Positions 14,832 to 48,790 of a stretch of DNA of 64,000 nucleotides are shown piece after piece. The stretch is from Bilabrum cf. latius (taxonomy: Eukaryota), in the NCBI GenBank assembly GCA_965178125.1, contig OZ237776.1:186001-250000 (forward strand), in the 5' to 3' direction. Position 1 is the first letter of the stretch. The number at the start of each line of letters is the position of its first letter. The position numbers and the translations under genes are program-made. The notes under the pieces were generated by a model. That model ran no database searches and was not told where the DNA came from. It worked only from the letters and a program-made list of their open reading frames with translations.

Positions 14832-17800
14832 ATGGGGACATCTACTTCAGTGCCATCGGCAGGAGCCGGCGCAGCCAGCGGCGCTCTGGGTACGCAAGGC
14901 AGCGCTGCGGCCGGCAGCGGCCTCCGAAACGGAGCAGAAATAATGTTGGACGATGGCGTGTGCATCCAAGTGGGTAAATTGCTGGGAGAGGGCGGGTTCG
15001 GATCCGTCTGGTCGGCGCGATTCGTGCTGTCATCCCCCGAGCAGCAGTCGGCAGCCAAACGAGCACTGAACAGAGGCGGCGTATCGGCCCAGGAGCTGGG
15101 ACTCTCTGGGGCCCGGGCAAGGGACCCCTCTCATTTCCCGCTGGTGCTCAAGCGGCAGCTGTACCCCGTCAACTGGGCGGCTGCAGCGGCTGCCGCTGCG
15201 GTTGAGCTCGCACTGGCCACTGGACTATCCCATCCGAGCGTGCGACCGTGGGGGTCCAGCGGGACAGGCCGCAAGGCGCCGCCCCCTGCGACCAACGCGC
15301 GCTAGAGGCACGTTGTGGCATGCCTGGGGGCCCGGCACGGCGCCGCGCAATCCGGTTCCGCCAACGGCCAGGCGCCAGCACTCGGCAGCGAGGGCGCTCG
15401 TCACACCCTGGACCTGCTCTTCGAGCGGTGCTGGGGCGGGACAGCTTACGACGAGGCGCTGGCGGCCGCCGAGTCGGGGAACAAGCGGCTGCCCGTGGCG
15501 GTGGTGCTGGGCCGCTGGCGCGCCCTGTGTCTGGCCGTCGCCGCGCAGCACGAGGCCACTGCGGAACCGGCCGGGGAACAGGCCTTTCTGGACGCCCTGC
15601 GCGGCGCCTGGCCAGCGTCCGCCGGCGGCACCCGCACGCTCGTCACACTGGCCAAAAGCTGGCCCCAGACCCGGCGTGCCCTCGCAGGCACACGCTCTGA
15701 CAGGGGACCGCTGGCAATCGCCAACAGGGACATCAAACCGGAAAACCTGGTCCTTGCGGAACCGCCGTGCGTGGAGGCCTACCTCCTCGACCTTCCTCCG
15801 CGACGGGTTCGCGAACGTTCGTCGTGGAGCCCCGAAGCCGCCTTCGGCAAGCGGGCCAGCCGGAGCAGGAGCCTTCGCGCCGGTGCGGGGGGGCCTGGCG
15901 GCTCGAGGATCGGATCCAGGGAACAGAAGAGGCGGGTCGCCCGCGGCATGGTGCCCGGCGGGGCCCCCGACCTGGGTCTCCCCCCCCTCCCCGCCGCAGC
16001 GTCCACCGGTGGATCGGGATCGGATCAGTCGGGTAGGCGCACGGACGCGCTGTCACTGGTGCCCGATTTTGCCCCGGAGGCAGTGCGCGCGGCGGGCGTA
16101 CCCACCCGCCAGATCGATTTCGGCTCCGGATACTGGTCCCGCGTGGGGGGTCCGGAGGGAAGGCCGGGTGGATTCGGGAACCGCGGTGCGAGTGCATCGC
16201 ACGGTGGTGCGGGACCGCCGGACTCGCTGGGGTGGACACCGGAAGACGAGGAGGAGCCCGGGCTGCCCGGTGTGATGAGTGACGAGAGCAAGCGGATCGC
16301 GGGGCAGGAGCAGGAGTGCGTCCACAACACCACCACGGCGGACTACCGCGCCCCCGAGCTACACGACTGCAAGGGGGGGCTCCCCGTGACCGTCCGATCG
16401 GATGTGTGGTCCCTCGGCTGCGTGCTGTTCGTGCTCGTTACACAGGGACCCAGCCCGTTCGGGGACGGGGAGGGGGGCGTCAGCGGGGCGGCCATCGCGG
16501 CGGGGGCGGGCTGGGACTGCGAGCGGATCCGGAGCCGATTCCCGGACTGGCTGCAGGGCGGTGATCCGGAGTCGAATTGGAAGGAGGAGGAGGGGGACGT
16601 CCCCGGGTGGCTGGCGGCGAGGCTGCGTCGCCTGCTCGGTATCATGCTTCGGAGGAACCCACTCAGGCGGCCGTCGGCCCGCGGGGCCGTGCAACTGGCC
16701 AGGCATCTGCTTGGGGAGGAGGTGTGGAGGCGGGCACAGGGTCTCAGACCTGGGAGCTTCGCCTCTAGAGCCGAGTACGATGAGGCGTGCAGGGTGGCGG
16801 ACGCTGCTGAAGCGGGCCGCGGGTCACCTGCTGCTGGTGCAAGGGCCACTCCAGCGGCGGCGGCGGCGGCTGCGGCTGGACCAGCTGCGGGGCCGGGGTC
16901 GACGGGAAGCGGCGGGGGCGGTTCGAGTGCGGCGGGGTCCGGTGCATTGCACGATCGTGCCACTGGTGTCGCTGATGGTACCGAAGAGGATGGGCAGGAC
17001 TGGAGCCCCTTCGACAACGAGGATGGGGGCGAGGATGGGGGTAGGATGGGTGCACTGCACGAGAGTGCAAGCACATCGCACACAGGGACAGCAGAATTCC
17101 AAGAAGAAGCCAAAACGCAGGATGAAGGCGACGATGACGAAGGTGAAGACGACGAGGAGGAGATCGACCTCGATGCTGCCGCTGCAGCCGCAGGCATCTC
17201 ACCCGTGCGGCCGATCCGTGGAGGCGCCGCGCATCTGCAGAGAGGTTCCGCTACCGGACGGCTCGCGATCCGCGCAACCCGACGACCCACCGGTGGATCG
17301 GCGGCCAGTTCCCCCCGGGACCCGAGCGCCCGTCCACCGTACCACCCCCCTGGGCTGACCATCTTCGACCCCAAGGACCCGCTGCAGTGCGGTGCACCCT
17401 ACCTTACGACCATCCGGGGCAGCAGCCAGGCATCCCACGTGGCGCTGCGATCCTTGTGCCTGGCTTACGCGCCGGCAGTGACGTCAGATGATGTGGCTTC
17501 CCGTCTCCTCCGGATGGGCGGCGGCGAGGCCTCGCGGGCCCAGAGGTGGGTAGCCAGAGCCACCGCGGTGGGCGCCCTCGGGGCACCGAAGCAGAAGTAC
17601 GTCCGCTTTCTGGCGGTGGAGGCGTGGGAGGTCGCGAGGGAGGCCAGGCGCGCGGCGTGGAGCGGAACCTGGGATCGGATCATGGAATCCACCGGTGGGC
17701 CCACCCCCACCCCGGAGTAGGCGCAGGCGCGGCTCCGCAAGCGCTGGATCAAGGCTTGGACCCCCGCAGCGCCCACGGTGCAGGAGCAGCGGCAGCGGCG

Positions 17801-20800
17801 CAGTTCCTCCACCGACGGGGCTTCCGGGAACGTTCCGGGATATTTCTGCGCGAAACCGCTCGCAGGATCGGACGCTCCCGCCGGCCGGGTCCCCGCCCCC
17901 GGAGCCCCTGCCATGCTGTCCGGCCCGCTGTGGCCCTGGCTCGAGCAGCGGCCCTGGGACTCGGAGCCGAATGTCGCGGCCACCAGCGCGGTCCTGCTGC
18001 TGCGGATGTGGCTGGACGGCCCTCCCGAGCTCTGCTGCGGGGCGGCGCTGGCACTCGCGCGGGCCTGGTGCTTCGAGGCGGGGGGCGGCTGGCGGATCCA
18101 GGCGCATCGCATTGCGGCGCAGTCCCCCGGGGGATGGCCGGCGGAACCGATCGAGGCCGCGCGGCTGGGCGCCGCGCGATTTGCCGCCCGCGTGTGCGGT
18201 TCCGCAGGGCGACACGCCGAGGCACTGGGGGCGATCGCCGCGGCGTTCCAGGAGACGAGCGGGCTGCCTGGGGCCTTCGGGGGCGACGGGGCCAGCGATG
18301 GTTCGTTCGGGTTCGCTGGGTTCGACGCGGCTGGCACCGCCGGCGGCGGGGGTACCCCCAGGGGAATGGAGGGGTGGGCGGCGTTCGAGTCGGGTGAGGG
18401 GCTGGTTGCAACCGGTGCGCAGCGGGCAGGGGCCCGCAGGGCTGGGCCGGGCGACGGCGACCGGTCCACCGGTGGATCGTTGGCGGGTCTGGGTGACCCC
18501 ACGGCGGGGACAGTGGGCATGGTGCCACCCGTGGGGGGCGATTTCCGTCCCGTGCTACCCCTGGTTGCGATGCGTGATACGGTGCTTTCGTCGTCCCGGG
18601 TGGCCGCCAGCCGGGAGATCGACCCGTCGCCCATGGAGTCACTCTCGCACCTGGTGTCAGTCGTGCGACCCAAGACCCAGGATCGGATCATACGGCATCT
18701 GCAGGCGGCTGCCTCGTCTGTCGTGTACCCCCTGGCCTCGTGTGCGGCAGCTGCCGCTGGCGTGTCGGCGCGAGCGCGTGCGGATGCCAGCGACGCAGCC
18801 GGCGGGGGCCGTGCGTCGGGTGTGACGAGTGAGGGCGTGACCACGGGCTTCCACCGGGTGAATTTCAGCGGTGGGTCGGGGGGCGACGGGGATGGGGCCC
18901 GCTCTCAATCTACCGGTGGAGGATCGAAGCCTCCCACGGCAGGCCCTCTGGTCCTGGGGGGACTGGAGCAGCTGCTGCTGGGCAGCGCGAGCACGGTGGT
19001 TGCAACCGCCTGCAACTCGGCGCGGGCACTCTCGGAGGCCCTGCGCGGGGTGGCGCTGGCTGCATCGCGCGGCGCCGATGTTCCGCAAGGGATCCGTGAG
19101 AGCTGCAGAAGGGCGAGGAGCACGCTCCGGGCGGTCGCGCCGGCCGTCCGCGCCGCATCCGAAGAGCTCCGGAGGGCCCTGTCGAAAACGCAGGTTGCAA
19201 CCGCGGTGCTGGAGGCGGGAGGATCCACCGTTGTTCCCCGACTGTCTGGGTGGCTGTACGGAGAGGAGACGGAGTCCGGCGGGGGCGGGGACGAGGGGGA
19301 AGAGGCCGGCAAGGCAGGAGTGGACGAGGATCCTGCCGTCGGTGAAGGAGCGGTGGAAGGGGGCTTGCACTCGTCACATCGAGGCGTGCATGATGGTGCG
19401 GACCCTCCGGCGGTCAGCAGCCCGGACGCGTTTCAGCTCGACCCCGAGGACAACGACGGCGCAAGGGATGGCGGCTAGGCAAGGGATTCGGAGGGCGGCG
19501 ATCGGGGCAGGCAGTCAGTCGGCCAAGTCGGGCATCCTACGGACCACCTGGGATTCCAGACGGTGGGCCTGCGTGGCGCCGCTGGTATAGCGGAACATGT
19601 CGACGCCTCTCGCCGGCGAAGGAACCGCCGGGCTAGGGCAAGGGGTGCTGGTGCTGATGCTGATGCTGGTGCTGGTGGCGATCCGCTGGTGGTGGCGGGC
19701 CAAGATCCAGAGGTGGATCTTGGGCTGGGAGGGGTGGCCAATGCGGAGCCAAGTTCTGGTCAAGCTGGACGAACCGGTGACAATGACGAGGATGACGACG
19801 ATGTGTGGGGGGTTGCTCGCGGCGTGGGGCAGGGATAGGACGAGGACGAGGATCCGACGAGTCCACTGGGCGGCATGGGAAACGGCGGCATGGGCGAAGA
19901 CGAGGAGGAGTTTGATCCATTCGGGGAACTGGGGGGTGGTGCCGTGGCAGCGCGGTCGGCAGGTGTGACGAGTGCGATGTCGGGTGCTGCCACGGCGGCG
20001 TCTGACGACCTGCTGCTGGTGGATGCCGGTCACAGCGCCAGAGTGGCGGCCGCGGTTCACTCGTCACAAGGGGCCGGCCTGACGTACGATTCTGAAGATG
20101 AAGATCGTGCGAACGACTTTGATCCGTTCGGTACGGTTGGATCGCACGGCAATGCAGTGCACCGAAGCACGTCCCAGCCGCCCCCGCGCCGCTCGGGCAG
20201 CGCCGATCCCCACCCCCCGCTCGGAACAGATCCGGAATCGGAATTGAAACGCCACCGAGGTGACGCCGACGGAGGCTCTTCGCCCCCGGTCGCTTCCCCG
20301 GCCCAGTTCGCCTCGGGGCCTGGGGGACACCCGCCCCCACACCCTACAGCTCGGCAGGGGCAAGCACAAGCACCAGCGCAAGCACGAGCACGAGCAGCGT
20401 CGCCTGCCGCTGGCCCTGGGCAGTCCACCGGTGGACCGGACTCATTCCGGTCATTCCGCACCTCGACCGGATCGGGCAGCAGGACGGAGGAAGACGGCAG
20501 CGGCAAGACACCAGCGGTTGCAGGTGTGACGAGTGGACGACTCCCGCGGGCGCCGGATGGAGACCACACATCGACCACCCCCGCGGCGCGTGCCGGCACC
20601 CCGGGCGGCCATTGTGTGACGAGTACGGCTGCACCGCACGGCTCCCAGGGTGGATCGAGCGAGCTTGGCTCCCTTGGGAAGCTGGCCAGCGAAACTGGCT
20701 TGAGCAGGGACGAATCCACCGGTGGATCGAGAGCCTCCAGGGGTGGAACCCTCGCTGGTCCTGGAGCCCCCCACGCCTCGTTCGATGGAGAGGGTGGAGC

Positions 20801-22304
20801 GGGCCCGTATGCATCCGAAGCAGGAGCAGCAGCAGCTTAGGGTGGAGATGGTGCAAGTGCAGGCGCAGGCGCAGGCGCTTCAGGGGGCGCTTCACCGGGT
20901 CTCGATCTCACGCTCGCGCAGCTCGAACGATCCAGGATGGGGTTTGACGCTGGGCTTGTCTCAGCGGCCGTGCCTTCCTCGCTGGGCCCGGCCAGCGTCA
21001 GTCCACCGGTGGAGCCAGCCGACCACAAGGTGGCCAAACACGGCGGCGCGCAGCAGACGGGCTACAATCCTTTCGCGACAGGCGCGGGGACGGGAGCCGA
21101 TTCTCTCCCGGATCAGGCCGCCCCCCCAATCGGGGGTGGACCCGCGCAGGCTGGGGGAAAGAAAGAAACCGGCGGGGCCGTCAGCGGGTCTCGCACCCGG
21201 GAGGGGGGCATGTCCACCGCGTGGGCCAAGGCCGCCGAGCTGGACCCCGAGCAGGTGCGGCTGCACCGAAGGATCGGATCAGGCGGATTTGCGGAGGTGT
21301 TCCTCGGAACCGTGAGGGGACGGGAAGTTGCGGTGAAGCGCCTGCTGGGTGACTTCCTGGCGGGTGCAGCGCACGGTGGTGCGGGTGACGGGGGCCGGGG
21401 TCAGCAGGCTGCCAAGGCCCAGCGCGACTTCGAGCGCGAAGTGGCGATGCTGGCGAGGCTCAGGCACCCCAGCCTGGTTGAATTCGTCGGGGTGGTCAAG
21501 CGGCCGCTGTGCCTGGTGACCGAGTTCTGCAGCCGGGGCAGCCTGTTCGACGTCCTGAGGAGGCACAGGAAACCCAGGGAACAACCGGGGCCCGGCGCCG
21601 GATCGGCCGCGATCGCGCTGGCCAAGCAGCTCGCGGCGACTCCAGCGGCCAGGGACGCCGGGGAGCCTGCCTTGGGGTGGGAGGTTGGCCTCAGCTGGAC
21701 GGCTCGACTGAAACTAGCCGTTGACGTGGCCTCGTGCGTGGCGTTCCTCCACGGGCAGAAGCCCGTAGTCATGCACCGGGATCTAAAATCTCTGAATGTG
21801 CTTGTTACTTCCGACTGGAGGGGTCGCGTGGCTGACCTGGGCCTGGCCCGGCTTAGGGGAGGGACCGGGAGCGTGCTTGGCTCCGTGGCGGGAGGCGGGG
21901 CCGCGGCTGCCGCGGCCGTGGGTTCCACCGGTGGATCGCTGTACACGCAATAGGTCGGTTCGTTCCACTGGATGCCTCCTGAGGTGATCGCCGGCGGGCG
22001 GTATGCGGAGCAGGCGGATGCGTTTTCCTTCGGCGTGATCCTTTGGGAGCTGGCCATGGGAACCACGCCATACGCCGGTATGGCGCCGGTGGCAGTGGCC
22101 TATGCCGTGCTACACCGGGGAACGAGGCCGCCCATTCCTCCCGCATCGATGCTCCCGGGCCCCGCGTTCGCGGCTCTGATGCGCGCGTGCTGGCGGGTGG
22201 ACCCGAAGCGGAGACCTCCGTTCCGGAAAATCGAGGCGGCGCTCAGGGGCCTGCTAATGGCGTGGGAGAGAGCTCACCCTGGAGAGTAGACTGTAGTTAT
22301 TTAA
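14832..22304 (+). CDS. 2490-aa dual kinase: N-terminal NAK (AAK1/BIKE-like) kinase, ANTH-like domain, low-complexity linker with DPF/NPF/WxxF motifs, C-terminal TKL kinase
   Basis: Single frame with 7 in-frame TAG (15303, 17718, 19476, 19836, 20838, 21951, 22287), no TAA or TGA until TAA 22302. Kinase 1 motifs: LGEGGFG, NRDIKPEN, IDFGS, TTADYRAPE, DVWSLGC. ANTH-like: RAT...APKQKYVR and LEQRPW...VAATSAVLLLRM. Kinase 2 motifs: IGSGGFA, VAVK, HRDLKSLN, DLG, WMPPE, DAFSFG. Confidence 0.9.
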
Positions 22305-22547
22305 AAAATTATCATGGGGCGTTCATACTCGATGTTTGAAGGCAGTCAATGTGCCGGCTTGGCTGCATCGAATTCGGAAGTAAGGCCGTGTGACTCGGGG
22401 TGCAAGGCCTAAACGCAATCACACAAACACTATAAAATGCTGGTTGTACCAGAAAAATGCGACTTCTGCTCTGGAAATGGGCGTTAAAAGCGCATGCACC
22501 GTAACGTGTGTGATAACTTTGAAAGATCAAGATAAAAACTAGTTTCC

Positions 22548-25500
22548 ATGGGGCTATCTATCATCTTCACCGATTATTGTACAAAGTGGCCTATGGACTG
22601 GCGAGAATACGTGTATTTCGGTGTTATATGCTTTGGGGGTATTTCATTTACGCTGCTGGGGTTTATAGACCCGTGGATCGAAGCCGGCGGGGCCGATGAC
22701 ACAAACGTACCAGGTGACCTTCGGAGCATACGGACGGGCACAGGTAGTATTATTGCAATGCTTGGGGTGTTTACCATGTGTATGGCAGTCCTGTGGCCGA
22801 ATAGTAGGACTCAGCTCTATCTTGTCGCTGCCACAGCCGTGAACTTTGGGGTGAGCAAGGTATACGTTGCTGCGTCATGCGGACCCGTCATGCTTCCAGT
22901 CGCCGTGTCGTATTACTGCTACACAAAGTATCGCAGTGTGCCATTCCAATGATTCAACTCGGGGAAGGTGTTTCCTCGATTCGTGTCTCTGATGATGGCG
23001 ACACCGTGCTGTCCCAGAGGTACCTCTACATCGGGTCTCTCGCGATGGCGACTGCGGTCGACATAACCATTGCGGTACGGGTACGCAACCATAGGCTCGT
23101 TTGTTCAGCTGTCATTGCAGTAGTGCTAGGTGCGCTATGCTTAATGATCGCGTATTCATCGAACGAGGTGGTCGGATTCCTGACAGGAGTCCTTTCCTTG
23201 GTTGTATATCCCCTTGCAGTTTGCATAATTCTTGCTGAGCTGTATCCAGGTCTTCAGATGGATCTCTGGGTGGATACGTGGGGTTCGTGCGGTTCGATGC
23301 GCGACCCACAAGGTGGAGGCGAGACCTTTGCCTGCCTCTGTGGGCGGATCTGCACGCCGGCATTCTGGATATGCCTATCTTGCTGCGGGGGTCAAGCAGT
23401 CTCTTCCAAACACTCATCGCAATTGTACTGCTGCGAATCAGTTGGCGCGAGGCAGAACAGAGTCCATGCTGCAGAAGAGGCAGCCGCTAAGGGGACTGGC
23501 AGCCCCCGGCGCGGTGGTCCGGGGGGTCGCAACGACGTGGCCAAGCAAGATATGGTCGCGCTTTCGCCTCCCAACACGAACGCCATGTCCCGGCCCGGAG
23601 CCGAGCATAGCACGGGCTCCGCCACCCCGGTTGGCCAAACGGACGACAATATAGGAGTGTAGAGATATATCATCATGGGGATCGTCCTCTGCGGCTTTGT
23701 CTACGTCTTCAATTACGTCCTGGTCCGGTGGGCGCGAGTCGGTGAAAAATCATCGAGGTTCGTGCTAGTGGCGGCTGACTGCGCTGTGGTGCTGCTCCGC
23801 TGCGCACTGGCTCTCTCCGTCGTGCACAATGACGTCATGAAGGTGGCCAAACAAGCCGCCGAGTCGCAGAAGTGGAAGCGAGAAGCCGCTGATGCCCGCC
23901 TCAGCACCATCCAGCAGTTCACCAGGTACATCTTCCACGAGGCCCGGGTGCCTCTTCAGGCGGTGTCGCTGTCGGTGCAGGAGCTGCAGCAAAGCCTCAA
24001 GGAGATCGGAGAGCACAGGAATGCGCTTAAACAGGTTCTACGGGGCATGCACGATAAAGCCGAAGACTAGGAAAGCGATAGCCTCGAGCGGCCGGTGACC
24101 CGTGGCGACACTGCTGACGGGAACTCTCTGTCCCGGCTTGCGGCACTGCACAGCAAGCTCAAGGCATCTGTGCTGGACGCCAATGACGTGCTCCGGTCCC
24201 AGCAGGAAGGGTGCAAGGGACTGCAGTGCATCTTCGACGACGTGCTCGAGGCCCAGCGCATCGAGCAGGGCAGGCTCAGGCTAAGGGACGAGGTGGTGGA
24301 CGTGCGGAAGCTGCTGTCTGACATGGTGTCTACATTCCATCGCACGGCTGACCACAATGGGCTGGATCTCGATGCACATGCAGCACAGGACGTGCCTTCT
24401 CACATTCGCGGCGACCCGGTGCGAATCAAGCAGGTGCTCGCCAATCTGGTGTCAAACGCGCTGAAATTCACTCCAAGGGGGGGCAACGTCGCCATCTCAT
24501 TGTGTGTTGCGAGATTCCTGTCATTTGCCGGGGAGGAAAGCCAAATGGTCCGACAACACCGCGATTGCTTAACCTCGTGGGCGTTGGAGAAGAAAATTGC
24601 TGCCGACGATGCAGCTCCAGACTCACGATCGAAATAGTCTGCGTGCGATGAACCCGCAGGTAGTCGTACGCGAGAGCAAGGTGCCCCTCCCGAGGGGGGA
24701 GGTGCTACCCCAACCCCCTGCCGTGATGATGATGATGATGATGCTGTTGGCCGGGGAGGTCGGCTTATCGTCACGAGCCCAGGTAGTATTGTGTTGCTGT
24801 CTGCTAATGTCACCGACTCTGGCTGCGGCATTTCACAAGACGACATCAAACAACTGTTCACACCCAACAAGCAGGCCAGACACGGAGTCGAGTACACGGG
24901 GTCTTCCTCCGGTCTGGGCTTGTACATCTCCCGCGGGATCGCTCGTCAGATGGGGGGCGATCTGGTGGCATCGAGCGAGGGAGAGGGCAAGGGCAGCGTG
25001 TTCACGTTCGAGTTCGAAGCAGCTGTGGGTCGTCCAACAGGACTTGGCATGCGCTCGTCACTAGATGGACCCATCAGAAGCCTCGAGGTATCCAACCCTC
25101 CTAGCATGGCTGCATCAAGACGCCCTTCACAGCTGCAGTTCGAGCCAGTGTCGGTGGCATCTGAAAGCGATCGAGACAGGGCGTCATACACGTCAACGTC
25201 GAGCCATCCCAGGTCTGCTGCCGCTGAAGTCCGCCACGGATCGGGCGCTGCGACTCCCTCGAGCCATAGCAACATTGCAAAAGGATTCGGGAGGTACAGA
25301 AGCGCGAGCCAGCACGAGCATGTTGTTGGAATCAGCCGTGCCAGCGGTCTTGATGAGGGCATGGATGCTACAAATGCTCTTATGCCCGCCTCTTCGGCTG
25401 GCCTGCAGTCTGCGTCAACTCAGCGGAGGTCGGAGGATCCAGGCACTGTGTTTGGGAGGGCGAGGAAGGTAGCTGCGGGTGGATCCACTGGGCAGCCGCT

Positions 25501-35907: not shown

Positions 35908-36044
35908 TCTCGTCGAATCGTGCCGGAAATGGAGAAGGGCGTTGCGATCTGATGACAATCTGCCAGTCGGTGAGAAATGCTCGTCACATGGATCCGTAGG
36001 CCCTAACCCTAATTTCAAGGTCCGCATGATAGAAAGCCTTCGCA

Positions 36045-39000
36045 TCACGTGCATGCAACATACTACCTACAAACCACGTCTACTTCTTTCGCGCTCGCAG
36101 GCTTGCCCAGCACCGCATCCAGCCCCTCCGCCTTGAAAGCCTCCAAGTCCTCGCCCAAAGCATCCCCCGTCAGGCCCACAATCACAAACCGAGACCCAAA
36201 TTCTCCACGGATCGACCGCGTTGCCTCCACGCCGTCCATCACTGGCATCGACTTGTCCATCGTGATCAGGCCCAGGCACTCCACCCCCGGCCCCGCCTCC
36301 ATGGCCCGGGCCCGGCACGCCTCCACTGCCTTCTGTCCGTCCCTGGCCTGGTGCACGGTGTATCCGAGCCTGCGCATGCCCCTGGCGAGCAGCTTCCTGT
36401 TGGTGGGCACGTCATCCACGATGAGGCACCATGCCTTGAGGGGGTCAAGGGGCGAGGGGGCTGGTGCACCACCGTGCGATGCAGCTGCAGATTTCGGCTG
36501 CACAGCTGCGCCATCACCTTTATCAGCGAGTGGATCGGTGTCAGATATCCCTGGGCTGTCACTGCATACTGCTACTTTACATGCTTCAGAGGCTTGCGGT
36601 ACACCAGGACACATGCTGGTCGATGGAAGGGAGCCCGATGGCCGCAAAGGGTGCGATGGGCCGTCCGCTGCGCCTGCCACAACCTTCGCATGCTCCCCTA
36701 GCCCCCACCTCCCTTGCTTGGATGAAGCACTGGCAGACTAACTGACTGGCACGTGGACAGTGGCAGGCATAGGACGCGTATTGCTTGCCATGTCTGCGTT
36801 CTGAGCTCGCTGCGCCTACCCGGCATGAAAGTTGTTGCTAGTATACGAACCCAGGGTGGTAGAGGCTGCCTCCAGCCCGGTTGGCTCCTGCTGCAAGGGC
36901 AAGTGCTGGCATACAGGGCTCCCCCGATTTGGGGTAGGCACTGCCTCGGGGCTAGACTTGCCGATGCTATCCTGTGCCGATGTGCATGTAATGACGATGC
37001 TTCCCTCGTCTCTAGTCGAATTTCTCTATGCTTGCAGCACTAGTTGCAGGCCAATTGGATTGCTTGGCTGGCCACTTGCGTCCTGTGTCGGCTGACCACC
37101 CTTGTCCTGGCTCTGGTTACCCCAAGCTGAGCTGGTGCGATGGGATGTAGACATTGACATGGACCGCAGTCGCAGCACTCCTGACCCGCCGGAGGAAGCA
37201 CTCAACTAAAGGTTGCCTTTGTCGCCCGGTCTGGCCTTGACCTTGCTTCGGATCGGCCCGTTGCCGTGCCGCGAAAGATGCCTGTGCCTGTTGTCTGCAG
37301 ATGGAAGCAGCTGCACACCACCACTGGCATCCAGGCTGCCATTCCGGCCTGGAACATCAGTGCATGCATCGATGGCAGCCTCGAACTCGAACGTGAACAC
37401 GCTGCCCTTGCCCTCCCCCTCGCTCGATGCCACCAGATCGCCGCCCATCTGACGAGCGATCCCGCGGGAGATGTACAGGCCTAGACCGGAGGAAGACCCT
37501 GTGTATTCCACTCCGTGTCTGGCCTGCTTGTACGGTGTGAAGAGCTGTTTAATGTCATTTTGTGAAATACCGCAGCCAGTGTCGGTGACGCTGGCGGTGA
37601 TCACGTGTGTTGCCTATACCGCCATGTCCTCGTAGGCTACAGCCGATGCTGCCGATCCCGAGTCGGCAGCTGCTTCGCCACTTTGCGCCATTCTGCCAGT
37701 GCTGATGCTTGATGCGACGCGGCCTGATCGAGCTCGCCGACTACTGTGTGCACCGCCAGATGAGGCCGGCACGGACGGACCACTGCCATGCTTGCCACCC
37801 AAAGTGCTTGCATCACCGTCCAGTTTCCTGCAGCAAACAAAGACTGATACCGTGCCTCCTTTTGCAGTGAATTTCAGCGCGTTCGACACCAAATTAGCAA
37901 GCACTTGCTTTATCCGAACTGGGTCCCCGCGGATGTGAGAAGGCACGTCCTGCGCAGCATCTGCCCGAAGATTCACGCCGTGCTTCTCGGCTGTGCGTCG
38001 GAACGTGGACACGATGTCTTGCAGCACCTGCGCCACGTCCACCGCCTCGTCCCTTAGCCTGAGCCTGCCCTGCTCGATGCGCTGGGCTTCGAGCACGTCG
38101 TCGAAGATGCACTGCAGTCCCTTGCACCCTTCCTGCTGGGACCGGAGCACGTCAGCCGAATCATCTGCAGAGACTGCCTGTCTCATCTGGAGGTCAGTCA
38201 GGTGGGCAGCGATGTTCTCGAGCTAGCTAACGTGATCATTCAAAAACCCACGATCAACAGCAGGGTGCTTCGATTGAAGTTGTTCGCCTGACCTATCGGC
38301 CACCGCCCCAATACTGGTGTCTCCAGGCAGATGACGCTTAGCGGCGACAACCGATCGTGACAGCTACGCTGACAGGTACTACAGCTGCTGACGCTGCTCG
38401 CCGATCTCCTTGATGCTCTCCTGCAGCTCCTGCACCGACAGAGACACCGCTTGAAGAGGCACCCGGGCCTCGTGGAAGATGTACCTGGTGAACTGCTGGA
38501 TGGTGCTGAGGCGGGCATCGGCGGCTTCTCGCTTCCACTTCTGCGACTCGGCGGCTTGTTTGGCCACCTTCATGACGTCATTGTGCACGACGGAGAGAGC
38601 CAGTGCGCAGCGGAGCAGCACCACCACGCAATCTGCGAGGGCCATCGCGACCGAGGATGCGCCAGGGTCAAAGTTGAGGAATCGAATGCCCTGGTATTGC
38701 AGGATGTACACAAAGCCACCTGCAATCATTCCAATGATAATGTAGAACTACCGTTGCCGCGTCCCGCCGTCATCTGCGATCGGTAATGACTGGCTCCAGG
38801 TCCTGGATAAATCATCAGCGCTGTGTGCAGGTTGGCCATCGGTTCCTCTTACGTTCCTACGCCTGAGGTGGGCATCATCCGAGCGTGCCTGGCCGCGTGC
38901 AAGCGACTCGGAGTGCGCCGGCGTTGTTGGCGCATACCTTCGGTCCGGCGACGAGCCCTGGCTGCCAGAGATGCTATAGTCGCGTTTTGGCTTGGGTTTC

Positions 39001-39990
39001 TCTGTTACTGCATCCGCTTGCATAGATCTAGCCGCTGGTGAGTGATGGCTTGTTCCGGATTTTGGTCTTGGCGCAGCCGGCGATGGCGTGGGCGAAGGCG
39101 CTGCCAGCACCGATGGAGTTCTATCCAATTGTTCGCTTTCACCCTCGGAAGCGCCTGCTGTCACTGTGGGATCGTTGCTGGCGTAGCAGCAGCATCCGCG
39201 GGCCGTAATGCAGCACCGCCCGTCTACTAGCCCGTCGCACAGGACGGCGTACCTTCCTTCTTCGTCCGAATCTATGCGCCCACAAGATGCCCATGTACCG
39301 ACCCAGGCATTGCATGGGCCCTTTGATAGCTCCCCAATAACAATGCACGCAAGCATGGGAAAGAAAACTGCAGTCAGCAGCACTGACGCGAGTTCAGTTG
39401 TCCAATGAATCGGGTATGCCGTCGACATCCCTGACAGGACGGTACCGACGGTCGCTATAGTGTATGATATCATCCTTTCATCGCGAAAATTTACGGCAAC
39501 TGCAATATCAGTGCACGCTGCAAGTCCCAAAGAGGAAACATACAGCCACCGCTGCACCAACACTGGTGCATTATTCGACATTCTAACATTAGACACACCC
39601 TCGCCCAAATGTATGATAGGAATTGCTGCCTGCGACAATATTGCAAGGTTGTAGTCCGAATATGCAGCTCAGAATAGTCTGAAATCGGCTGTGCAGGTAG
39701 GCCCAGTCACGACTCACAGCTAGATTTATGATCGTTGCAGAAGCCAAGTACAACTTCGTGCGACCTGCTGGCCATACGATTGCAGTATAGCAAGTAAATA
39801 TTGTAAGCAAGACAAGGATACTTCCGGTAGCTGTGCGCAAACTCTGCAATCGAATGGGAACAGATATATCCTGTACGGTACCAGCGCTTGTTATATCATC
39901 CACCAATGAAAGGGCGATAACGATGGCTGCTAGAAGCCCACATGAATGAAAGAATGTGTTCGCACGCCATCCATTCGATGAAAGGGCCAT
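36045..39990 (-). CDS. Hybrid histidine kinase 3; intron 39630-39717
   Basis: The gaps between ORF-track pieces contain only TAG; ends at TGA 36045. All HK and REC motifs are present. Confidence 0.88.
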
Positions 39991-40224
39991 TTCAGTACTG
40001 AAATGTCGTTGGTCGCTGTGCTGGTGCTCGGTCGCAAGCACAAATTATACATACTACTAGTAAAGTACACTAATCAAATTCTAGCATGCAGCAAGTTGCC
40101 AGCAACCCTAACCCCAAAACCCTTATTTTAGCAAACACTGAGGCACATTTAAAGTTTCATCTTCACGCAACGCACAGCATCAACAAATTCAGAAGAGAAT
40201 CAACGAGCGATAACACTCAGGACG

Positions 40225-43200
40225 TCACGCCACACGATCAGATTTCAAGGTCGCGCTCGCCATGTCATGGACCTCAGCGGCGCTCGCAGGTTTCCCAAGC
40301 ACATCATCGAGTCCTGCCGCCACAAATTCATCGGCTTCAGGGCCTGCAGCATCCCCCGTCAGGCCCACAATCACAAACCGAGACCCGAACTCTCCACGGA
40401 TCGTACGCGTCGCCTCCACGCCGTCCATCACTGGCATCGACTTGTCCATCGTGATCAGGCCCAGGCACTCAACCTCCGGCCCCGCCTCCATGGCCCGGGC
40501 CCGACACGCCTCCACTGCCTCCTGCCCGTCCTTGGCCTGGTGCACGGTGTATCCGAGCCTGCGCATGCCCCTGGCTAGCAGCTTCCTGTTGGTGGGCACG
40601 TCGTCCACGATGAGGCACCACGCCTTGAGGGCGTCAAGGGGCGAGGGGGCTGGTGCACCACCGTGCGATGCAGCTAAGCTTTTCGCACGCAGCGGGCTGC
40701 CCCTTGATGAGGTCCCAGTCACACCCACAGCTTCAGCCCCATCACTCCTTGCCCTGGCTTCAGCCCCAGCGCCAGTCGCAGTCACAGCAGCCGAAACAGC
40801 ACCGGTCATAGCACCAGTCACAACCCCCTGCCTACCACCTGGACTGTTCCTGTCCATCCCACTCCAGGTTGCCTTGGTGAACACGAATGACCCTGCGTTC
40901 TAACTGCTACCAGGGGCCACAGCTGCACAGCCAATGCCGCTGCTACCATCGCCAGCCGCACTATCATCACAACCACCGCCAGCATCCTCTTCACCACCAC
41001 GCGTTGTAGCCGGCCCTGATCTGCTCAGTCCCACGTGTTCATCGAGCTCATTGATGTTGCGGCAAGACACGGCGGTGTGCGATTGACCCTGTCTATCGGT
41101 TGACTCAGGAGCATCTGCCTCGAATTCAAACGTGAACACGCTGCCCTTGCCCTCTCCATCGCTCGATGCCACCAAATCGCCCCCCATCTGACGAGCGATC
41201 CCGCGGGAGATGTACAGGCCTAGACCGGAAGAAGAGCCCGAGTGCTCTATGCCGTGTCTGGTGCGAGTGTACGGATCGAACAGTGTTTCCATAGCCATCT
41301 GGCTGATACCCCGGCCGGTATCGGAGACCGATATTCGAATGCGATAAGTAATACGATCTTCTGAACCCGTGTCGCGGGCCTGATTCTCACTGTCCTGTGT
41401 TCGGTCTTTGGGCCGGGCGTGGGTTGAGCCAGGAGCACCGCTGCTGGTGCGCATCGCGCTGCTGCTGCTGCTCCGCAATGGCGCCTGCGCTTGCCGCTGG
41501 AATCCAATGCCACTACTCAAAGCGAGTGGGTCGAAGGAGGATCCCTTGGAGGGAGATCCGTCGTAGGAGGATCCGGAGGAGGAGTGAGGAAGGGCGACAG
41601 CGGCAGCAGGAGCAGCGGAAGCTGCGTTGCCATCGTTGACATTGTCAGCGTCCTTTTCCTTGCCAACCAACCCACGGCTGTCATGCCCCGCACGCGACGA
41701 TGTGGTAAACGCCACATGATTGCCTTGCATGCGCCTGGCTGTGGCCTCCACCGTAATCCTGCCTTCCTTACGGTCGGTGAATTTGCGCGCGTTGCTGATC
41801 AGATGAGCCAGCACCTGATGCACCCTCTTGCTATCCCCACGCACGGTCGAAGGGAGGCCGAGCCGCACCACTAGCTGCACGGGGCAGCCCCCTTGGGACT
41901 ATAGGGAAACTTCGGCGGCGTTTGAGCGAGCTCGCTTTGCTGCCAGCGGTGCGGCTGCCCCCCTCGGTGACTCGGGTGGTGCGGTGGCTCCCCGGAGCAC
42001 TTGCATCAGGTCGAAGGGTTCATCCCTTAGCCTGAGCCTGCCCTGCTCGATGCGCTGGGCCTCTAGTACGTCGTCGAAGATGCACTGCAGTCCCTTGCAC
42101 CCTTCCTGCTGGGACCGGAGCACGTCCAATGCCTCTCTAACCTCTGCTCCGAGCCGACCCAGAGCGCGCACCATGTCTCGGTGGAATCGCCTCGTGGTTG
42201 TCTCTGTATCTTCTGGCTTGAGCCGGGTTATGGGATGCTGCCCGGAGGCTTCTTCCAAAGGACCTGCAGGGTGTCGAGGACTTTTGCTGCTGCTTCTGCT
42301 GCTTGAATTGTGACCGGAGGCGCCGTCGCCCGTGAAGCCGAGTTGCGTGCGACCGCCTGTTCCGGGGACGAACGCACGCGCCAGAATCGGATCCCAAGCC
42401 ACGGTTTCTTTTACTATGAGCTGCTAAATGCTGCCACATTTGGCCTCAATGGATGGAAGTCCCTCCTTCAGCTCCTGCACCGACAGCGACACCGCCTGAA
42501 GAGGCACCCGGGCCTCGTGGAAGATGTACCTGGTGAACTGCTGGATGGTGCTGAGGCGGGCATCAGCGGCTTCTCGCTTCCACTTCTGCGACTCGGCGGC
42601 TTGTCTTGCTATAATCACGATGTCACCGATGGCAACAGCTAGAGCAAGGGCGACTCGCAGCACGACGATACTTGCATCGAATGCAAGAAGCATCCACTCA
42701 GCCGCTGCTACTGAGAGACCCCAGTACCGCTTGCCGTAGTACTATACTGGATACAGTACGCTGGAGGCTATGGCTGCCATGAGGAGCCACTGGGGGATTG
42801 TAATATCACTCAGGTGAGTTGCCCGTTTGAAGCATCCTTCGCCTTGGTCTGAGGCAGTGACCTGAGCACCTGCATCTGCGAGCTGCACAATCCGGCTAAG
42901 CTGCCCCTAACCTTGGGGATGTATCGCAGTCGCGTCCAGATTCGACGGCATGCATTTCGCTGGAGGCCCAGGCGATGCACCGTCGATGCCTCCTTCTAGC
43001 GGCAATCGGCTGCATCGTTGCTCCACCGCAAGAAGCCATCCATCCACAATTCCATCCAGGGGCCCCTTAAATGTTTCAAGAAATATTAAGGCGCCGAAGA
43101 TGCATTGGAAAGCGAGGGACAGTATCATTCCTGAAGCACCGACTGCCGGAGTCCAGGCCACCACAACTGATAGCGTCGCGAGGCCGAACACTGCTATGCA

Positions 43201-43748
43201 AGCACACCACATGCGTCGCTTCCTCATCACAGTCGCAACCTGGGCATCAATAAATATGCCTAGTAGGAATGCTGTGTTGACATACTGTCTGATTCTTGAA
43301 AGGTATGCATACTCCACGAACACCTCGGTCGATAAGTTGAGGCAAAGTGCTGCCATTGATAATCCGACCTGCGATGCGACCGTCAGCAAGTAGTAATACT
43401 TAGGAGCATGTTTCATTAGTTTCTTGGTTTCAATCACTTCCTGGCGGTAGTACTTACTACAAAGCATGATGCAAAATCAGCTGCGAACAAAAACTTCGCC
43501 ACCACAGAGCTGTGCGCCAGTATACCATAAACGAAGGGTATGGATGCAACAAACATTGCGCTTGCTAGAGCTAATCTAAGCTGGAGCACTCCCGACTGAG
43601 AGTTCTATGGCTTGCATCGCAGTGCAGGTTGACTTCGGAATGCACCGTGACTGTTGTCGCAGTGTCCCATATCCACGCATACGAGAACCGCACATACTAG
43701 ACACACAGCTATTATCAATAAATACGATGTCATTTGAACCGAAGTCAT
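40225..43748 (-). CDS. Hybrid histidine kinase 4; intron 43369-43457
   Basis: Exon 1 MTSVQMTSYLLII...ADFASCFV is followed by gtaagt; in-frame TAGs only; ends at TGA 40225. N-box variant HQVLAHLISNARKFT. Confidence 0.85.
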
Positions 43749-43917
43749 GGAGGACTCGGCGAAGGCATACGTAACGTATAAATGTGACAGTATATGCGGA
43801 AGCAGCAGTCGTGGCCAATTATGTTCCGTGACATGAATGCGCGGCGCCTACGTCACTCACCAAAGTGGCAGTGTACAAGCCTTGATCCTTAGGCAGAGGA
43901 GTATATTGGCGCGATCA

Positions 43918-46900
43918 ATGTTGTTTGTTTCCAAAGGAGAGTTAGTACTCTACTTTGGAACCATTGCAGTTTCGTTGACACTCCTTGGTATCTCGCTCGT
44001 CGACGGGATTCGGTGTTCAGACGATCAGCCTGAATGCTCTAGTCCGGCAGAGTTCTCCATCTCAAGTGTTCAAACTGCGACAGCATTTGGCATGCATGCC
44101 TGCTTTGCCATTGCTGGCTGCATGTTGGAACCGAACCCAAGGACCCTGCTGTACCTTTCCACCGTCGCCGCCACTGATGCAACTGTGAGTTCAAGACTGG
44201 AGCGAGGGACTTCTGCGCCCTTCAACTTGCATCCCAAAAAACGAACATGTTTTGTACGCCCTCGCTACGCAGATGTTTGCGGCGTCGGTCTTTTTAGAGC
44301 TGCATCGTAGCGGTACGGTTCAGAGTTTTGGTGTTCCAGTGAATCGGTAGCGGATGCTTTTTGGTGCGGCATCAGCCTTGGCAGTAGTAAACGATAGCTA
44401 GCTGATATTCCAAATGCGGTATAACCGAATGCTTGCAACCGCTGCATGGCTAGCCGTCCTGTGTGGTGTAGTCATAGCCAGCTTGTACGTCTCGGCACTG
44501 GCTGGAAACATTGCTCTTGTGTTCATTCAATGGACTTCCTAGGCCGCTTTTACAGTAGTATTGGTATCAGAGGTACTTCGTGGCAGCGTCGACCGCGCTT
44601 TATCTTGCTGCTTCGATTGTAACCTGGAGCAGCAGACGACCCCGGAGCGTAGGCAGAATGCCCCGGGACCTCCCGGCATGGACAATAAGCCTGGCAGTGG
44701 GAGTGGTCGATTAAAGGGGAATGATCCGTACCCAAGTTTGTTGACGAGCGATACTCGCCAGCTTCTCCTCCTGGATGACCGGCCTCTGCAACCACACAGG
44801 ATGCCCCAAAGCAGCCCCGCAATTGATGGAGAGGAGGACAAGCCTGAGGAGAGGAGCGGGTGCCGACGCGTCACTCCCATCAGCGCCCTAGCCCTCGTTG
44901 CACTCGCAGGCGGTCTTTCATACTCGATCGAGTTCTACGGGCGCCGATTCCTCGGCCTCTCCGTCGAGTCGGGCGCCTACGTCCTCCTCGTGTCGGATGT
45001 GCTAATCGTGCTCTTGCGGTATGTCACCTCAATCGCGATCCTGCACAACGACCTGGTTCTCGTGGCCAAGCAGGCTGCCGAGTCGCAGAAGTGGAAGCGA
45101 GAAGCCGCCGATGCCCGCCTCAGCACCATCCAGCAGTTCACCAGGTACATCTTCCACGAGGCCCGGGTGCCTCTTCAGGCGGTGTCACTGTCGGTGCAGG
45201 AGCTGCAGGAGAGCCTCAAGGAGATCAACCAAGAGGCGATTGAGCTCAAACGAATCGCCAAAGAACACCGCAGAGAACAGCGAAGGGAGCGGAATCGGGC
45301 GACCGACCTCACCGAGGCACAGGAGCAGGAGCAGGAGCAGGAGCTTGAGCAAACAGGAGCAGGGGCAAACACAGGATGGGCAAGACCAGGAGCAAACGCT
45401 GCATCTGCACAAGCGATTGAATCGCCGGAGATGTCGGAAAGTGCCATTCGGCGAGAAATCGCCGAGCTCCTGTAGGAGGTGACCGAGGCACGTGACGTGC
45501 TCCGGTCCCAGCAGGAAGGGTGCAAGGGACTGCAGTGCATCTTCGACGACGTGCTCGAGGCCCAGCGCATCGAGCAGGGCAGGCTCAGGCTAAGGGACGA
45601 GGTGGTGGACGTGGCGCAGGTGCTGCAAGACATCGTGTCCACGTTCCGACGTACAGCTGAGAAGCGAGGCGTGAATCTTCGGGCGGATGCTGCGCAAGAC
45701 GTGCCTGGCCACATCCGCGGGGACCCCGTGCGAATCAAGCAGGTGCTTGCCAATTTGGTGTCGAACGCGCTCAAGTTTACTCCCAAAGGTGGGGCTGTCC
45801 ATGTCCACGGCAGGATATCAGAGGTCCAGACCATGTGGGCAGCCACAGGTGCAGGTGCAATCACAGATGCGGGAACAGATGCGGGAATGGGTGGCTCTGC
45901 ATTAGCGGACGTTGTTGTTGGAAGGGATATGGCCGGTAAATAGGACTAGCATGGGCGTGATGGAGCTGACAATGACGTCATTGTGCTCGCTCATCCAGGT
46001 GATGCAGGTGCAGACACGGCCGGTATGGGACCAGCCGGTGAGGCTGATGCACGTGTAGAAGCCGAAGGCAGTATAGGCACTAGCCGGGGACTGCTGGGAC
46101 CCGCGCGTGAAGCATCGCCTGCATTTCCCAAGCCCAATCTCAAGCCCTCACCCCAATCGAGGGCATCTGTGGGAACTGCGCACTCGTCATACCGCAGCAC
46201 CTCCAAGATAGTCCCAGTCATCGGTTCCGGAGGGTCGTCTGTCGCTAGCTCAGTCTCCTCTTCATAGAAAGGCAAGACCAGCAGAACTGCTTGGGCGGGC
46301 CGCCAGGCAGCCGATGCCACTGCTGACTTGGCTGCCGGCAGTCCACACGGCAAGGCACGCACTGCAGACCGAGTCCACTCTGCTGCCCACAGCGGCGATC
46401 TCCTCGGAGGTGCCCTGCGAGAAATATCGCCCCATGGTAAAGGTAAAAGTGGGGGACGATATCGGTCAAGCAGCACTGGCAACGGCGGCGTTGTCTCGCC
46501 CGCAGGCCAAGCACCGGTGCCTGCCGCTGACGACACCGGTGGTGAGTCGGAGGGATAGACGGCCATCGCAGCGGGCACCGAGGTGGCCTTCCGGCTCGTC
46601 TTTGAGGTAACCGACACCGGCTGCGGCATTTCACAAGACGATATCAACCAGCTCTTCACGCCCTACAAGCAGACCAGGCACGGCGTGGAATACACGGGCT
46701 CTTCCTCCGGTCTGGGCTTGTACATCTCCCGCGGGATCGCTCGTCAGATGGGCGGCGATCTGGTGGCATCGAGCGAGGGAGAGGGCAAGGGCAGCGTGTT
46801 CACGTTCGAGTTCGAGGCGATGCCTGCCCCCGCACCACGATCGAGTCGGCTGAGCGCCTCCTCTGACGGTTCGTTCCTGACGGACGCTGGTCTCTCTGGC

Positions 46901-47806
46901 TCGCTGGTCTTCTCCGTACCGGCGGGGGATGCAAGCAAGGTGGACTTGAATGAAGGCTCGGCAGTGTTCCCAGATGCTGTTGGGACCCAGCTGGGTACAA
47001 GCACTACTGCGGGGCTGTTTCCCGGCTTGGATCCTGCGGCTGGAAGCGGAAGCAGGGCGAGAGGTTCGACTGCCAGTCACGGGGGTACCGTCAGTCACGC
47101 GCGGGATGATGTTAGCGGTGCAGCTCGCGGTGGTGCAACCATTTGCGATACCAACAAGCTCGTCGCTTCAACCCTGGATTCGGAAGTCCAAGACAACGAC
47201 ACAGAGACCTCCCCTTCAGCAGCAGGTGCGGATGCAGCGGCAGCATCCGGGACTACAAAGCGGAGGAGGGTCGTAAAACGGAGCAGGAAGGGAGGCGCGA
47301 GTGGTCCCGATGAACGTGTGCTAGGAACCATGCATGCCGATGGTGGTGAGCCTGGTGGGGGGGCGGGTGCATCGCACGGTGGTGCACCAGCCCCCTCGCC
47401 CCTTGATGCCCTCAAGGCGTGGTGCCTCATCGTGGACGACGTGCCCACCAACAGGAAGCTGCTCGCCAGGGGCATGCGCAGGCTCGGATACACCGTGCAC
47501 CAGGCCAAGGACGGGCAGAAGGCAGTTGAGGCGTGCCGGGCCCGGGCCATGGAGGCGGGGCCGGGGTTGGAGTGCCTGGGCCTGATCACGATGGACAAGT
47601 CGATGCCAGTGATGGACGGCGTGGAGGCGACGCGGTCGATCCGTGTTGAATTCGGGTCTCGGTTTGTGATTGTTGGCCTGACGGGGGATGCTTTGGGCGA
47701 GGACTTGGAGGCGTTCAGGGCCGAGGGGTTGGACGCGGTGCTGGGCAAGCCTGCTGGGGCGAACGAAGTCCAGCAGAAAGTCAATCGCGTGAACAACCCA
47801 GAATGA
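43918..47806 (+). CDS. Hybrid histidine kinase 5; intron 44185-44272
   Basis: 8 in-frame TAG (44348, 44399, 44540, 45473, 45941, 45947, 46265, 46556); ends at TGA. All HK and REC motifs are present. Confidence 0.88.
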
Positions 47807-47929
47807 ATTTATGTGAGTATGCGAACTTAGTTTCTCTGCCATCCCAAGTTCTTGTGGAGACCATGGGAATTGCGGAACCTCGTGAAGCGCGCGGCGACCA
47901 GGCGCAATCATTAGAAAATCTACGAAGCT

Positions 47930-48790
47930 ATGGCCGAGGCTTTGACTAGTACCGTTATGCCGACGTAGCTTCTCTCATTCTTGTTTGTATTTACTCTGCT
48001 TATATCTTTCGGCAGCATCTTGGTTGTCCTTGCCATTCTCGATGCAATCAACTGCACGACTCACGAGACGACGTGCGTGTCTGAACATGAGATTCCTTTG
48101 CGGTGGTTGCGACAAGTAGTTGCGTCATCAATTTTCGTGCATGCTTGCGTGTATGCATACGGGATGTACGCATGGCAAGGCGCCGTAGTGAAGTGTTTCT
48201 TTGGAGCCGCGGTGTGCATTGATGTTGCGGTAAGTCTTTACTCAGAGCAAGATGTTTAGGGGTGATTTTCAAAACCTTACCTTCATCATTCCAATGTATT
48301 TTGGTTCAATTCATTGGCGCAGCTTGGAACGACAATGACCCTCATGGGATATGCAGTGTCGGGCGTCAACACGGTGCTCGGACAGCCATATCGAGTACAG
48401 AGATGGCTTCACAACACGGCGTCTGTCCTTGCTGTGTTCAATGATGCTTCCATCGGAGTCTAGGTTCGAAATGATCGTTTCGTTTACGCAGCGTTGGCAT
48501 GGATGGGTCTTGCGCTTTGCGTGCTGCTTTTCGCGTACGTGCGCAGCGATGCTGCACAACTGGCCAACGTGTTTGTCACGCTGCCCTTGCAAGGCTTCAT
48601 GAGCATATTGATATTATTAGAGGTATTTCGCGGGCCAATAGATGCCTCTGTCAACTCGTGCCTCCTGAATATGTGCTGGTGGCCCCAGTGGCTCAAGCAA
48701 ACCCAACCAGTTGCTGGCGAGCCTTAGCCGACAGACAGCGTGGCTTCCCCTGCCCGTATTGGCGATGGCGCTACGAAGCGAGAATCTGTT
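47930..48790 (+). pseudogene. 5' part of hybrid histidine kinase 6 (intron 48230-48322), interrupted by the virophage
   Basis: Sensor helices align with HK1-5 (VQRWLHNTASVLAVFND; PLQGFMSILILLEVFRGPID). Homology ends at the G10 run where composition switches to AT-rich. Confidence 0.8.

Follow-up and report, generated by a model that had tools for sequence, protein, structure and literature searches.

A 64,000-nucleotide stretch of the Bilabrum cf. latius assembly (GCA_965178125.1, contig OZ237776.1, positions 186,001–250,000 of the forward strand), which we call the window, very probably belongs to a nuclear genome in which UAG encodes glutamine (Gln) and UAA and UGA remain stops, a code of the NCBI table 15 type. 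This reading had been proposed for positions 14,832–48,790 in a preliminary description of the DNA, and it is now supported by invariant Gln columns in a kinase family, by the exchange of TAG and CAG between orthologues, by RNA-like contigs that retain TAG, and by the genes of an integrated virophage, which contain no in-frame TAA. The code itself is already known, and the host of the window is probably a further case of that code type. GC content is 54–70% over bases 1–48,000 and 32–42% beyond about 48.8 kb; the first 48.8 kb are best explained as nuclear DNA of a GC-rich eukaryote in which UGA is the commoner stop.

Under the standard code, the flagged region breaks into frames of just 200–860 amino acids (aa). 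Reading through TAG yields seven very long host frames, encoding a 2,491-aa protein kinase, a 1,604-aa JmjC protein and five hybrid histidine kinases (HK1–HK5) of 1,083–1,255 aa, in genes of 58–70% GC. Together these genes hold 49 in-frame TAG codons and not one TAA or TGA in 9,967 codons, bearing out the pattern that the preliminary description had reported for the kinase, JmjC and HK genes; the TAA ends that it had placed at 22,302–22,304 and, on the minus strand, at 9,938–9,940 are likewise present. TAG usage extends past the flagged end at 48,790 into the virophage (48,795–64,000), whose nine genes contain 81 in-frame TAGs, no TAA and no TGA in 3,811 codons. Across both sets (130 TAGs in 13,778 codons of 16 open reading frames (ORFs)), Pfam domains span or flank the TAGs. 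Off frame, with two frames counted per stretch and totals summed by hand, the host genes hold 67 TAA, 358 TGA and 128 TAG and the virophage genes 228 TAA, 207 TGA and 124 TAG (295 TAA and 565 TGA pooled). TAG is about equally common in frame and off frame, and TAA and TGA are kept out of frames as long as 2,491 codons. The 16 ORFs close with TGA (12) or TAA (4). Because TAA and TGA served to delimit the frames, the zero counts are partly built in and to that extent tell less for the proposed code than they seem to; the weight therefore rests on frame length, domain continuity, the off-frame counts and C-termini that match those of homologues. HATPase_c and receiver domains share one frame in every one of HK1–HK5, and in HK1 two TAGs (aa 963 and 989) lie between HATPase_c (aa 695–767) and the receiver (aa 1130–1245). 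With 3–17 TAGs per gene, leaky readthrough would yield almost no full-length protein, which shows that UAG is decoded efficiently as a sense codon.

The same usage is found in relatives. Metagenome contigs scanned with the conserved core of the kinase family yielded 13 loci (L001–L013; 53–60% GC, 40–80% identity), so that our comparisons cover the 64-kb window and 57 kb of relatives. Kinase-family frames in all 13 loci carry 2–14 in-frame TAGs. Altogether, 17 frames from these loci contain 116 TAGs in 13,157 codons and close with TGA (8), TAA (2) or the contig end (7). Genes outside the kinase family are also affected, namely those for phosphatidylserine synthase (seven TAGs), DGAT (one) and the proteasome subunit Rpn3 (four). 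These housekeeping frames lie at L005 7034–9229, at L010 4799–6616 and on the minus strand of L010 (strand-oriented 2928–4715, equivalent to L010:2700-4487:-). TAG in the housekeeping genes of relatives indicates that the code is no quirk of the kinase family, and its presence across several loci that it is shared by a lineage rather than confined to a single strain. One locus, L012, is the syntenic orthologue of the window kinase with a histidine kinase adjoining, and here the two codons exchange in both directions. The window TAG at 21,951 (YTQ[TAG]VGSFHWMPPE, with 20 of 21 neighbouring residues identical) is CAG in L012, and a window CAG (LTLA[CAG]LERSRMGFDA) is TAG in L012. The protein collection that we searched contained no full-length relative of HK5 (662–2,109 aa); kinase-family relatives there amounted to 13 fragments of 73–532 aa, consistent with standard-code gene calling that cuts at TAG. 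Organisms of this lineage are under-annotated in public data, with their proteins cut at TAG by standard-code gene callers.

We considered whether TAG might have a dual meaning, Gln inside genes and stop near the 3′ end in some contexts, as in Condylostoma or, for UAA, Blastocrithidia. Five of the 16 ORFs carry a TAG no more than six codons from their stop, against 1.35 expected (P ~0.012, post hoc): the kinase (22,287), HK3 (36,063–36,065) and the virophage ATPase (52,822–52,824), penton protein (56,118–56,120) and capsid protein (57,996–57,998). This excess, which counts against TAG being a sense codon throughout, could be due to chance, to old TAG stops that are now read through, or to some termination at TAG, and frames by themselves cannot separate a stop at TAG from termination at TAA or TGA only a few codons on. 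Homologues that reach the C terminus nonetheless run past the TAG. Three capsid homologues (P0002–P0004) end level with the TGA, two of them (P0003 and P0004) with Gln at the TAG position; the L012 orthologue runs three residues past the last TAG of the kinase; and the tail of HK3 has the same length as that of HK1. No special base context follows TAG, the next base being distributed as after other codons, and the enrichment was noticed only after the fact in 16 ORFs. We regard a dual meaning as improbable, if the best placed of the alternatives.

A second possibility is that UAA and UAG both encode Gln and UGA is the sole stop, TAA being merely rare in GC-rich DNA. Such codes (NCBI table 6) are used by Tetrahymena, Hexamita, some Ulvophyceae and Amoeboaphelidium. 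The high GC content of the host genes, the predominance of TGA among the closing codons and the way in which the frames were delimited would all accord with it. The virophage genes, at 33–43% GC, speak strongly against it. They prefer CAA (98) to CAG (35), so TAA, were it a Gln codon, would outnumber TAG; yet it occurs in frame not once beside the 81 TAGs, as against 228 times off frame, which argues that TAA is not a sense codon. The host genes similarly use CAA 106 times and TAA never. TAA also stands where a stop is expected: that of the kinase is no more than one codon away from the TGA that stops its L012 orthologue, and the L001 kinase has TAA right after its receiver domain, where paralogues end in TGA. 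These observations leave a code with UAA and UAG both read as Gln very unlikely.

Comparison with homologues bears on which residue TAG encodes. The paralogue matches given in the preliminary description proved real, and all of its coordinates exact: TAGs 44,348, 44,399 and 44,540 of HK5 lie opposite Gln of paralogues, and TAG 23,660 of HK1 and TAG 38,748–38,750 of HK3 (minus strand) share a position opposite the CAG at 34,859–34,861 of HK2 (minus strand). At TAG 44,399, both HK4 and a protein fragment (P0157) have Gln, and TAG 33,404–33,406 of HK2 aligns with Gln of HK1. Most host TAGs sit in linkers that align poorly among the paralogues. In the family alignment, 82 columns combine a TAG with at least six other residues, and in 17 of these one residue accounts for at least 60%. 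Gln is the majority residue in seven of the 17, covering eight TAG codons, and several of these columns fall in invariant motifs of the family. Gln was found in 16 of 16 other sequences at IQ[TAG]FTRYIFHE, in 15 of 16 at both AI[TAG]QFTRY and RIE[TAG]GRLRLRD, in 14 of 15 at CKGL[TAG]LIFDD (where two loci have TAG) and at ES[TAG]KWK, in 10 of 11 at GIAR[TAG]MGGDL, and in 9 of 11 family members at the window's own TAG 44,348. A Codetta-like likelihood procedure over well-aligned columns also selected Gln, ahead of arginine by 32.1 nats for the loci (n = 15) and by 38.9 nats overall (n = 17), and recovered 61 of 61 sense codons as controls in both sets. For the window genes alone, Gln led alanine by 3.6 nats (n = 2), with 56 of 58 control codons recovered. 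In 144 codon pairs from well-aligned contexts, TAG stood opposite CAG 81 times and CAA 10 times, followed by codons for lysine (13), arginine (12), serine (7) and threonine (5).

Several observations weigh against this assignment. Ten of the 17 conserved TAG columns have a majority residue other than Gln (G, V, R, L, S, P, H, K, L and A). Inspection of all of these but columns 1542 and 1963 traced them to misaligned tails of L002, L011, L013 and HK6, to gappy linkers, or to positions facing arginine or lysine. Few window TAGs lie in well-aligned columns (two in the likelihood procedure, and a single codon pair), and the strength of the Gln assignment comes mostly from relatives and one orthologue. 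Comparison of the virophage capsid protein with five close homologues does favour Gln: TAG stands opposite Gln in 15 of 56 cases and opposite glutamate in 10 of 56, with BLOSUM sums of 55 for Gln and 29 for glutamate and 57 of 59 control codons assigned correctly. As a caveat, P0001, the same capsid protein in another record, already has Gln at every TAG that it covers, which suggests that some gene caller applies code 15 to viral contigs and that Gln in the close homologues is perhaps not independent. Finally, a profile built from 153 capsid homologues, most of them distant, placed serine and alanine first for TAG; it misread CAA as serine or glutamate too, so it is uninformative for Gln and not contrary to it.

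These points bear on the possibility that TAG encodes another residue, be it leucine (as in the rhizarian exLh), serine (as in Scotinosphaera), glutamate, lysine or tyrosine, and many TAGs do face lysine, arginine, glutamate, serine or tyrosine in paralogues and capsid homologues. Among the conserved columns in which Gln is not the majority, however, just leucine recurs, both times in misaligned sequences, and the likelihood margins and the 91 of 144 codon pairs with CAG or CAA favour Gln over any other residue. We consider a different residue highly unlikely. Pyrrolysine was rejected as a candidate because TAG aligns with Gln. Alignments to solved structures (the Sputnik and mavirus capsids and human Rpn3, PSS1 and PSS2) were too distant to use, with TAG facing K, Y, H, E, Q, A or M. 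On comparative grounds, Gln is the residue to be assigned to TAG.

Contigs from public sequencing runs allowed TAG to be followed into what appears to be RNA. The part of the window from 30,000 to 39,000 is present in eight public runs from four studies, none of them on record as RNA. Contigs of four runs (X1, X5, X6 and X7) were compared over 30,000–49,999, where they show presence only, among the pieces listed. Contigs of X6 and X7 skip 35,517–35,632 and 43,367–43,455, and those of X1 and X5 run straight through. Both skipped parts begin with GT and end with AG on the minus strand, the coding strand of HK2 and HK4, and given the contiguous X1 and X5 sequences we read X6 and X7 as spliced cDNA. 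The automatic run labels fit this less well, with an 'RNA?' guess for X6 and X7 and 'probably DNA' for X6; we infer the RNA nature of these runs from the joints. Of the 31 TAGs of HK2–HK5, 15 lie within the pieces listed for X6 and X7, which show neither a differing letter nor a gap there. One spliced X6 contig (42,575–43,366 joined to 43,456–43,771) carries TAGs 42,907 and 42,742 unchanged together with the HK4 splice joint, and another X6 contig, spanning 36,457–37,407, keeps four HK3 TAGs. None of the 21 differing letters listed between 30,352 and 48,832 falls on a TAG codon. RNA had been named in the preliminary description as a check on the code, and in these RNA-like contigs TAG stays TAG; to the extent that the runs are indeed RNA, editing and splicing-out are excluded for those 15 codons. 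The idea that the TAGs are untranslated, whether as nonsense mutations in pseudogenes (recently expanded families such as these kinases often include some), as sequencing errors, as codons edited to CAG or as parts of introns, draws some support from the absence of a run recorded as RNA but is barely credible, given that just one stop codon of three occurs in frame, 130 times over, that relatives repeat the pattern in Rpn3, phosphatidylserine synthase and DGAT, that eight runs from four studies contain the stretch, with spliced contigs keeping their TAGs and the differing letters listed lying off them, and that the introns found are short and at 5′ ends.

On the best explanation, the cytoplasmic ribosomes of the host read UAG as Gln and still terminate at UAA and UGA. 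By analogy with known cases, a tRNA-Gln with anticodon CUA would pair with UAG and not with UAA, which is how the two UAR codons can differ in meaning, and the release factor eRF1 would presumably have ceased to recognize UAG while keeping UAA and UGA. As a point on the other side, no tRNA genes were found in the window or in L001–L013. The window had no match to Rfam families, and eRF1 is in neither the window nor the loci. On the same explanation, the virophage, inserted at about 48,795, depends on the translation system of the host and is adapted to it. With no tRNA gene in the 15 kb that lie within the window, it must rely on the decoding apparatus of the host. Of its 214 Gln codons, 81 (38%) are TAG, as against 49 of 425 (11.5%) in the host genes; TAG is the cheaper codon for an AT-rich genome, and a share of this size points to long adaptation to the code.

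The host part of the window contains, from left to right, a tandem array and the seven long genes. The array (8,352–10,021) consists of 21.2 copies of a C-rich 79-bp unit with 97% matching and has no Pfam hit; as 79 is not a multiple of three, all three plus-strand frames are open and encode a proline-rich repeat. The large protein-kinase gene (14,829–22,304, plus strand; 2,491 aa) has seven in-frame TAGs, starting at 15,303, 17,718, 19,476, 19,836, 20,838, 21,951 and 22,287, ends with the TAA at 22,302 and matches Pfam PK_Tyr_Ser-Thr at 166 bits (aa 2144–2342 and beyond). HK1 follows on the same strand (22,718–26,485), with eight in-frame TAGs, a TGA end and Pfam HATPase_c and Response_reg matches in one frame; its first three TAGs (22,745, 22,802 and 22,805) may sit upstream of the true start. 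L012 keeps the same order of kinase and then HK. The JmjC-domain protein, which has Cys-rich repeats, is encoded on the minus strand (26,711–31,525), with three TAGs (28,946–28,948, 28,412–28,414 and 27,866–27,868), a TGA end and a JmjC_2 match of 45 bits.

The remaining HK genes all have Pfam hits and end in TGA. HK2 (32,174–35,542, eight in-frame TAGs), HK3 (36,045–39,668, ten) and HK4 (40,225–43,476, five) lie on the minus strand and HK5 (44,189–47,806, eight) on the plus strand. The 5′ intron of HK2 (35,517–35,632, minus strand) is 116 nt long and runs GT..AG, with the joint from 35,516 to 35,633 in X6 and X7 only; that of HK4 (43,367–43,455, minus strand) is 89 nt long and also runs GT..AG. 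Apart from these two introns, each gene forms one long exon. Within 25 kb (22,718–47,806), the two strands together encode five full hybrid histidine kinases. Their cores (DHp-like motif, HATPase_c and receiver) are near-identical and their linkers unrelated, which points to a recently expanded or homogenized gene family. A sixth member, HK6 (48,266–48,794, plus strand), is an N-terminal fragment that aligns with the N-terminal membrane part of HK1–HK5 and is truncated by the virophage. This layout, with several long genes in 48 kb of 54–70% GC, looks unlike that of ciliate macronuclear DNA.

The integrated virophage begins at 48,795 and runs off the end of the window at 64,000. At the junction with the host (about 48,794/48,795), GC content falls from 0.62 to 0.32–0.42. 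The insertion lies inside the HK6 coding region, so that only the N-terminal membrane part of HK6 is left. The double jelly-roll major capsid protein (56,220–58,004, plus strand; 15 TAGs, TGA end) matches Sputnik_MCP_1st (84 bits) and MCP_V20_C (90.7 bits), as well as the Sputnik V20 structure 3j26 (E 2.7e-31), and the penton (minor capsid) protein (54,873–56,132, plus strand; 17 TAGs) matches Pfam V18-19 at 29.8 bits against a cut-off of 27. The Pfam scores of both proteins are all above the family cut-offs. A D5-like primase-helicase (62,118–63,833, minus strand; 11 TAGs) matches DUF5906 at 56.2 bits and also VapE-like_dom. Two further genes have matches below the cut-off: a probable packaging ATPase (51,862–52,839, plus strand; nine TAGs, TAA end), whose function is suggested by an AAA_22 match of 24.7 bits (cut-off 27), and a probable protein-primed family B DNA polymerase (60,219–62,078, minus strand; four TAGs), with a DNA_pol_B_2 match of 21.2 bits (cut-off 25.8). 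The ORF at 50,798–51,463 has no Pfam hit; from its position and size it may be a cysteine protease. Scans of viral contigs with the capsid protein, the capsid alignment and the ATPase gave no match, and one with the D5-like helicase gave a single contig at 29% identity.

An X1 contig (47,688–48,821) crosses the junction, and loose ends at 48,793, with joints that reach 48,794 from other places, suggest that the virophage is present in further copies elsewhere. Over 48,676–49,999, word depth in the DNA-like run X1 is 1,044–2,165 at the virophage end compared with about 31–33 for the neighbouring host DNA; X6 and X7, both RNA-like, have a depth close to zero at that end. These depths, which are not copy numbers, could be accounted for by many copies of the virophage or by its free DNA, together with little transcription.

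A broader reading is that a GC-rich, free-living lineage, neither ciliate nor metamonad and with several species in metagenomes, reassigned UAG to Gln independently of all described cases, and that the virophage and, by implication, the giant virus that it parasitizes depend on the code. We regard this as evenly balanced. The preliminary description had likewise suggested a possible further independent origin, in a host that it took to be perhaps bicosoecid-like. If true, the code would form a barrier that locks a three-way virus system of host, virophage and giant virus to the host lineage, and codon rarity could not easily explain the change, since the genome terminates mostly at UGA and not at UAA. 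Few nuclear codes give UAG and UAA different meanings; those that do demonstrate that the translation machinery can separate the two codons, and each independent case provides a test of the route of reassignment, be it codon capture, an ambiguous intermediate or a change of release factor. What distinguishes this case is the combination of a GC-rich genome with UGA as its main stop, short GT..AG introns, relatives in metagenomes and a virophage that shares the code. A virophage that follows the code of its host allows the effect of a variant code on virus–host specificity to be studied. Cultured material apparently exists, given the DNA and RNA-like runs from four studies.

Among known codes, NCBI table 6 likewise reads TAG as Gln, and differs in that TAA has a place there as Gln too, whereas here it closes frames and never occurs inside them, the AT-rich virophage genes included. 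The published cases known to the preliminary description agree with those in PMC11687900, which adds Protocruzia tuzeti (Gln) and Scotinosphaera (serine). That paper lists reassignment of UAG alone to Gln in Iotanema spirale, Hartmannula sinica, Trochilia petrani and Protocruzia tuzeti, to leucine in the rhizarian exLh and in Tara phyllopharyngeans, and to serine in Scotinosphaera. In two Tara phyllopharyngean genomes, a sense UAG is reported to go together with a tRNA of anticodon CUA. The closest counterpart is Iotanema spirale, a member of the Fornicata in which, according to PMC5304391 and PMC9161772, UAG encodes Gln, UAA and UGA are stops, and eRF1 carries a change from GTS to GGS (PMC9161772). 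Like Iotanema, the window host has a non-ciliate nuclear code in which the UAR codons are uncoupled, with UAG read as Gln and UAA and UGA kept as terminators. Unlike Iotanema, in which UAA is the primary stop, it closes 12 of 16 window ORFs, and its relatives 8 of 10, with UGA. Iotanema is moreover an anaerobic endobiont known from a transcriptome, whereas the present case comes from GC-rich genomic DNA, in contigs with several genes each, and includes histidine kinases and a virophage.

Three ciliates, Hartmannula sinica, Trochilia petrani and Protocruzia tuzeti, resemble the window host in reassigning only UAG to Gln and in using it widely inside genes (PMC11687900). UAA accounts for 86.9–98.3% of their stops, in genomes of 27–54% GC, whereas the host DNA here has 54–70% GC over 48 kb and several long genes per contig. 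The codes of exLh, the Tara phyllopharyngeans and Scotinosphaera share a sense UAG beside a UAA stop and differ in the residue, leucine and serine both being rejected here by likelihood. In the literature searched, which lay outside subscription journals and supplements, we found no report of UAG as Gln in a GC-rich, virophage-bearing protist and none of stop-codon reassignment in a virophage; the one match for virophage and reassignment together concerned UGA as tryptophan in a plastid (PMC12480563). The virophage resembles Sputnik and mavirus in its integration into a protist genome, in capsid and penton proteins that match Sputnik families and the structures 3j26 and 6g45, and in its D5-like helicase and probable ATPase and polymerase; in contrast to those virophages, every gene here carries in-frame TAG. 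Viruses with many in-frame TAGs that mean Gln are also known among code 15 phages, such as crAss-like phages. Those phages depart from the code of their hosts (PMC9523058), whereas this virophage conforms to that of its eukaryotic host.

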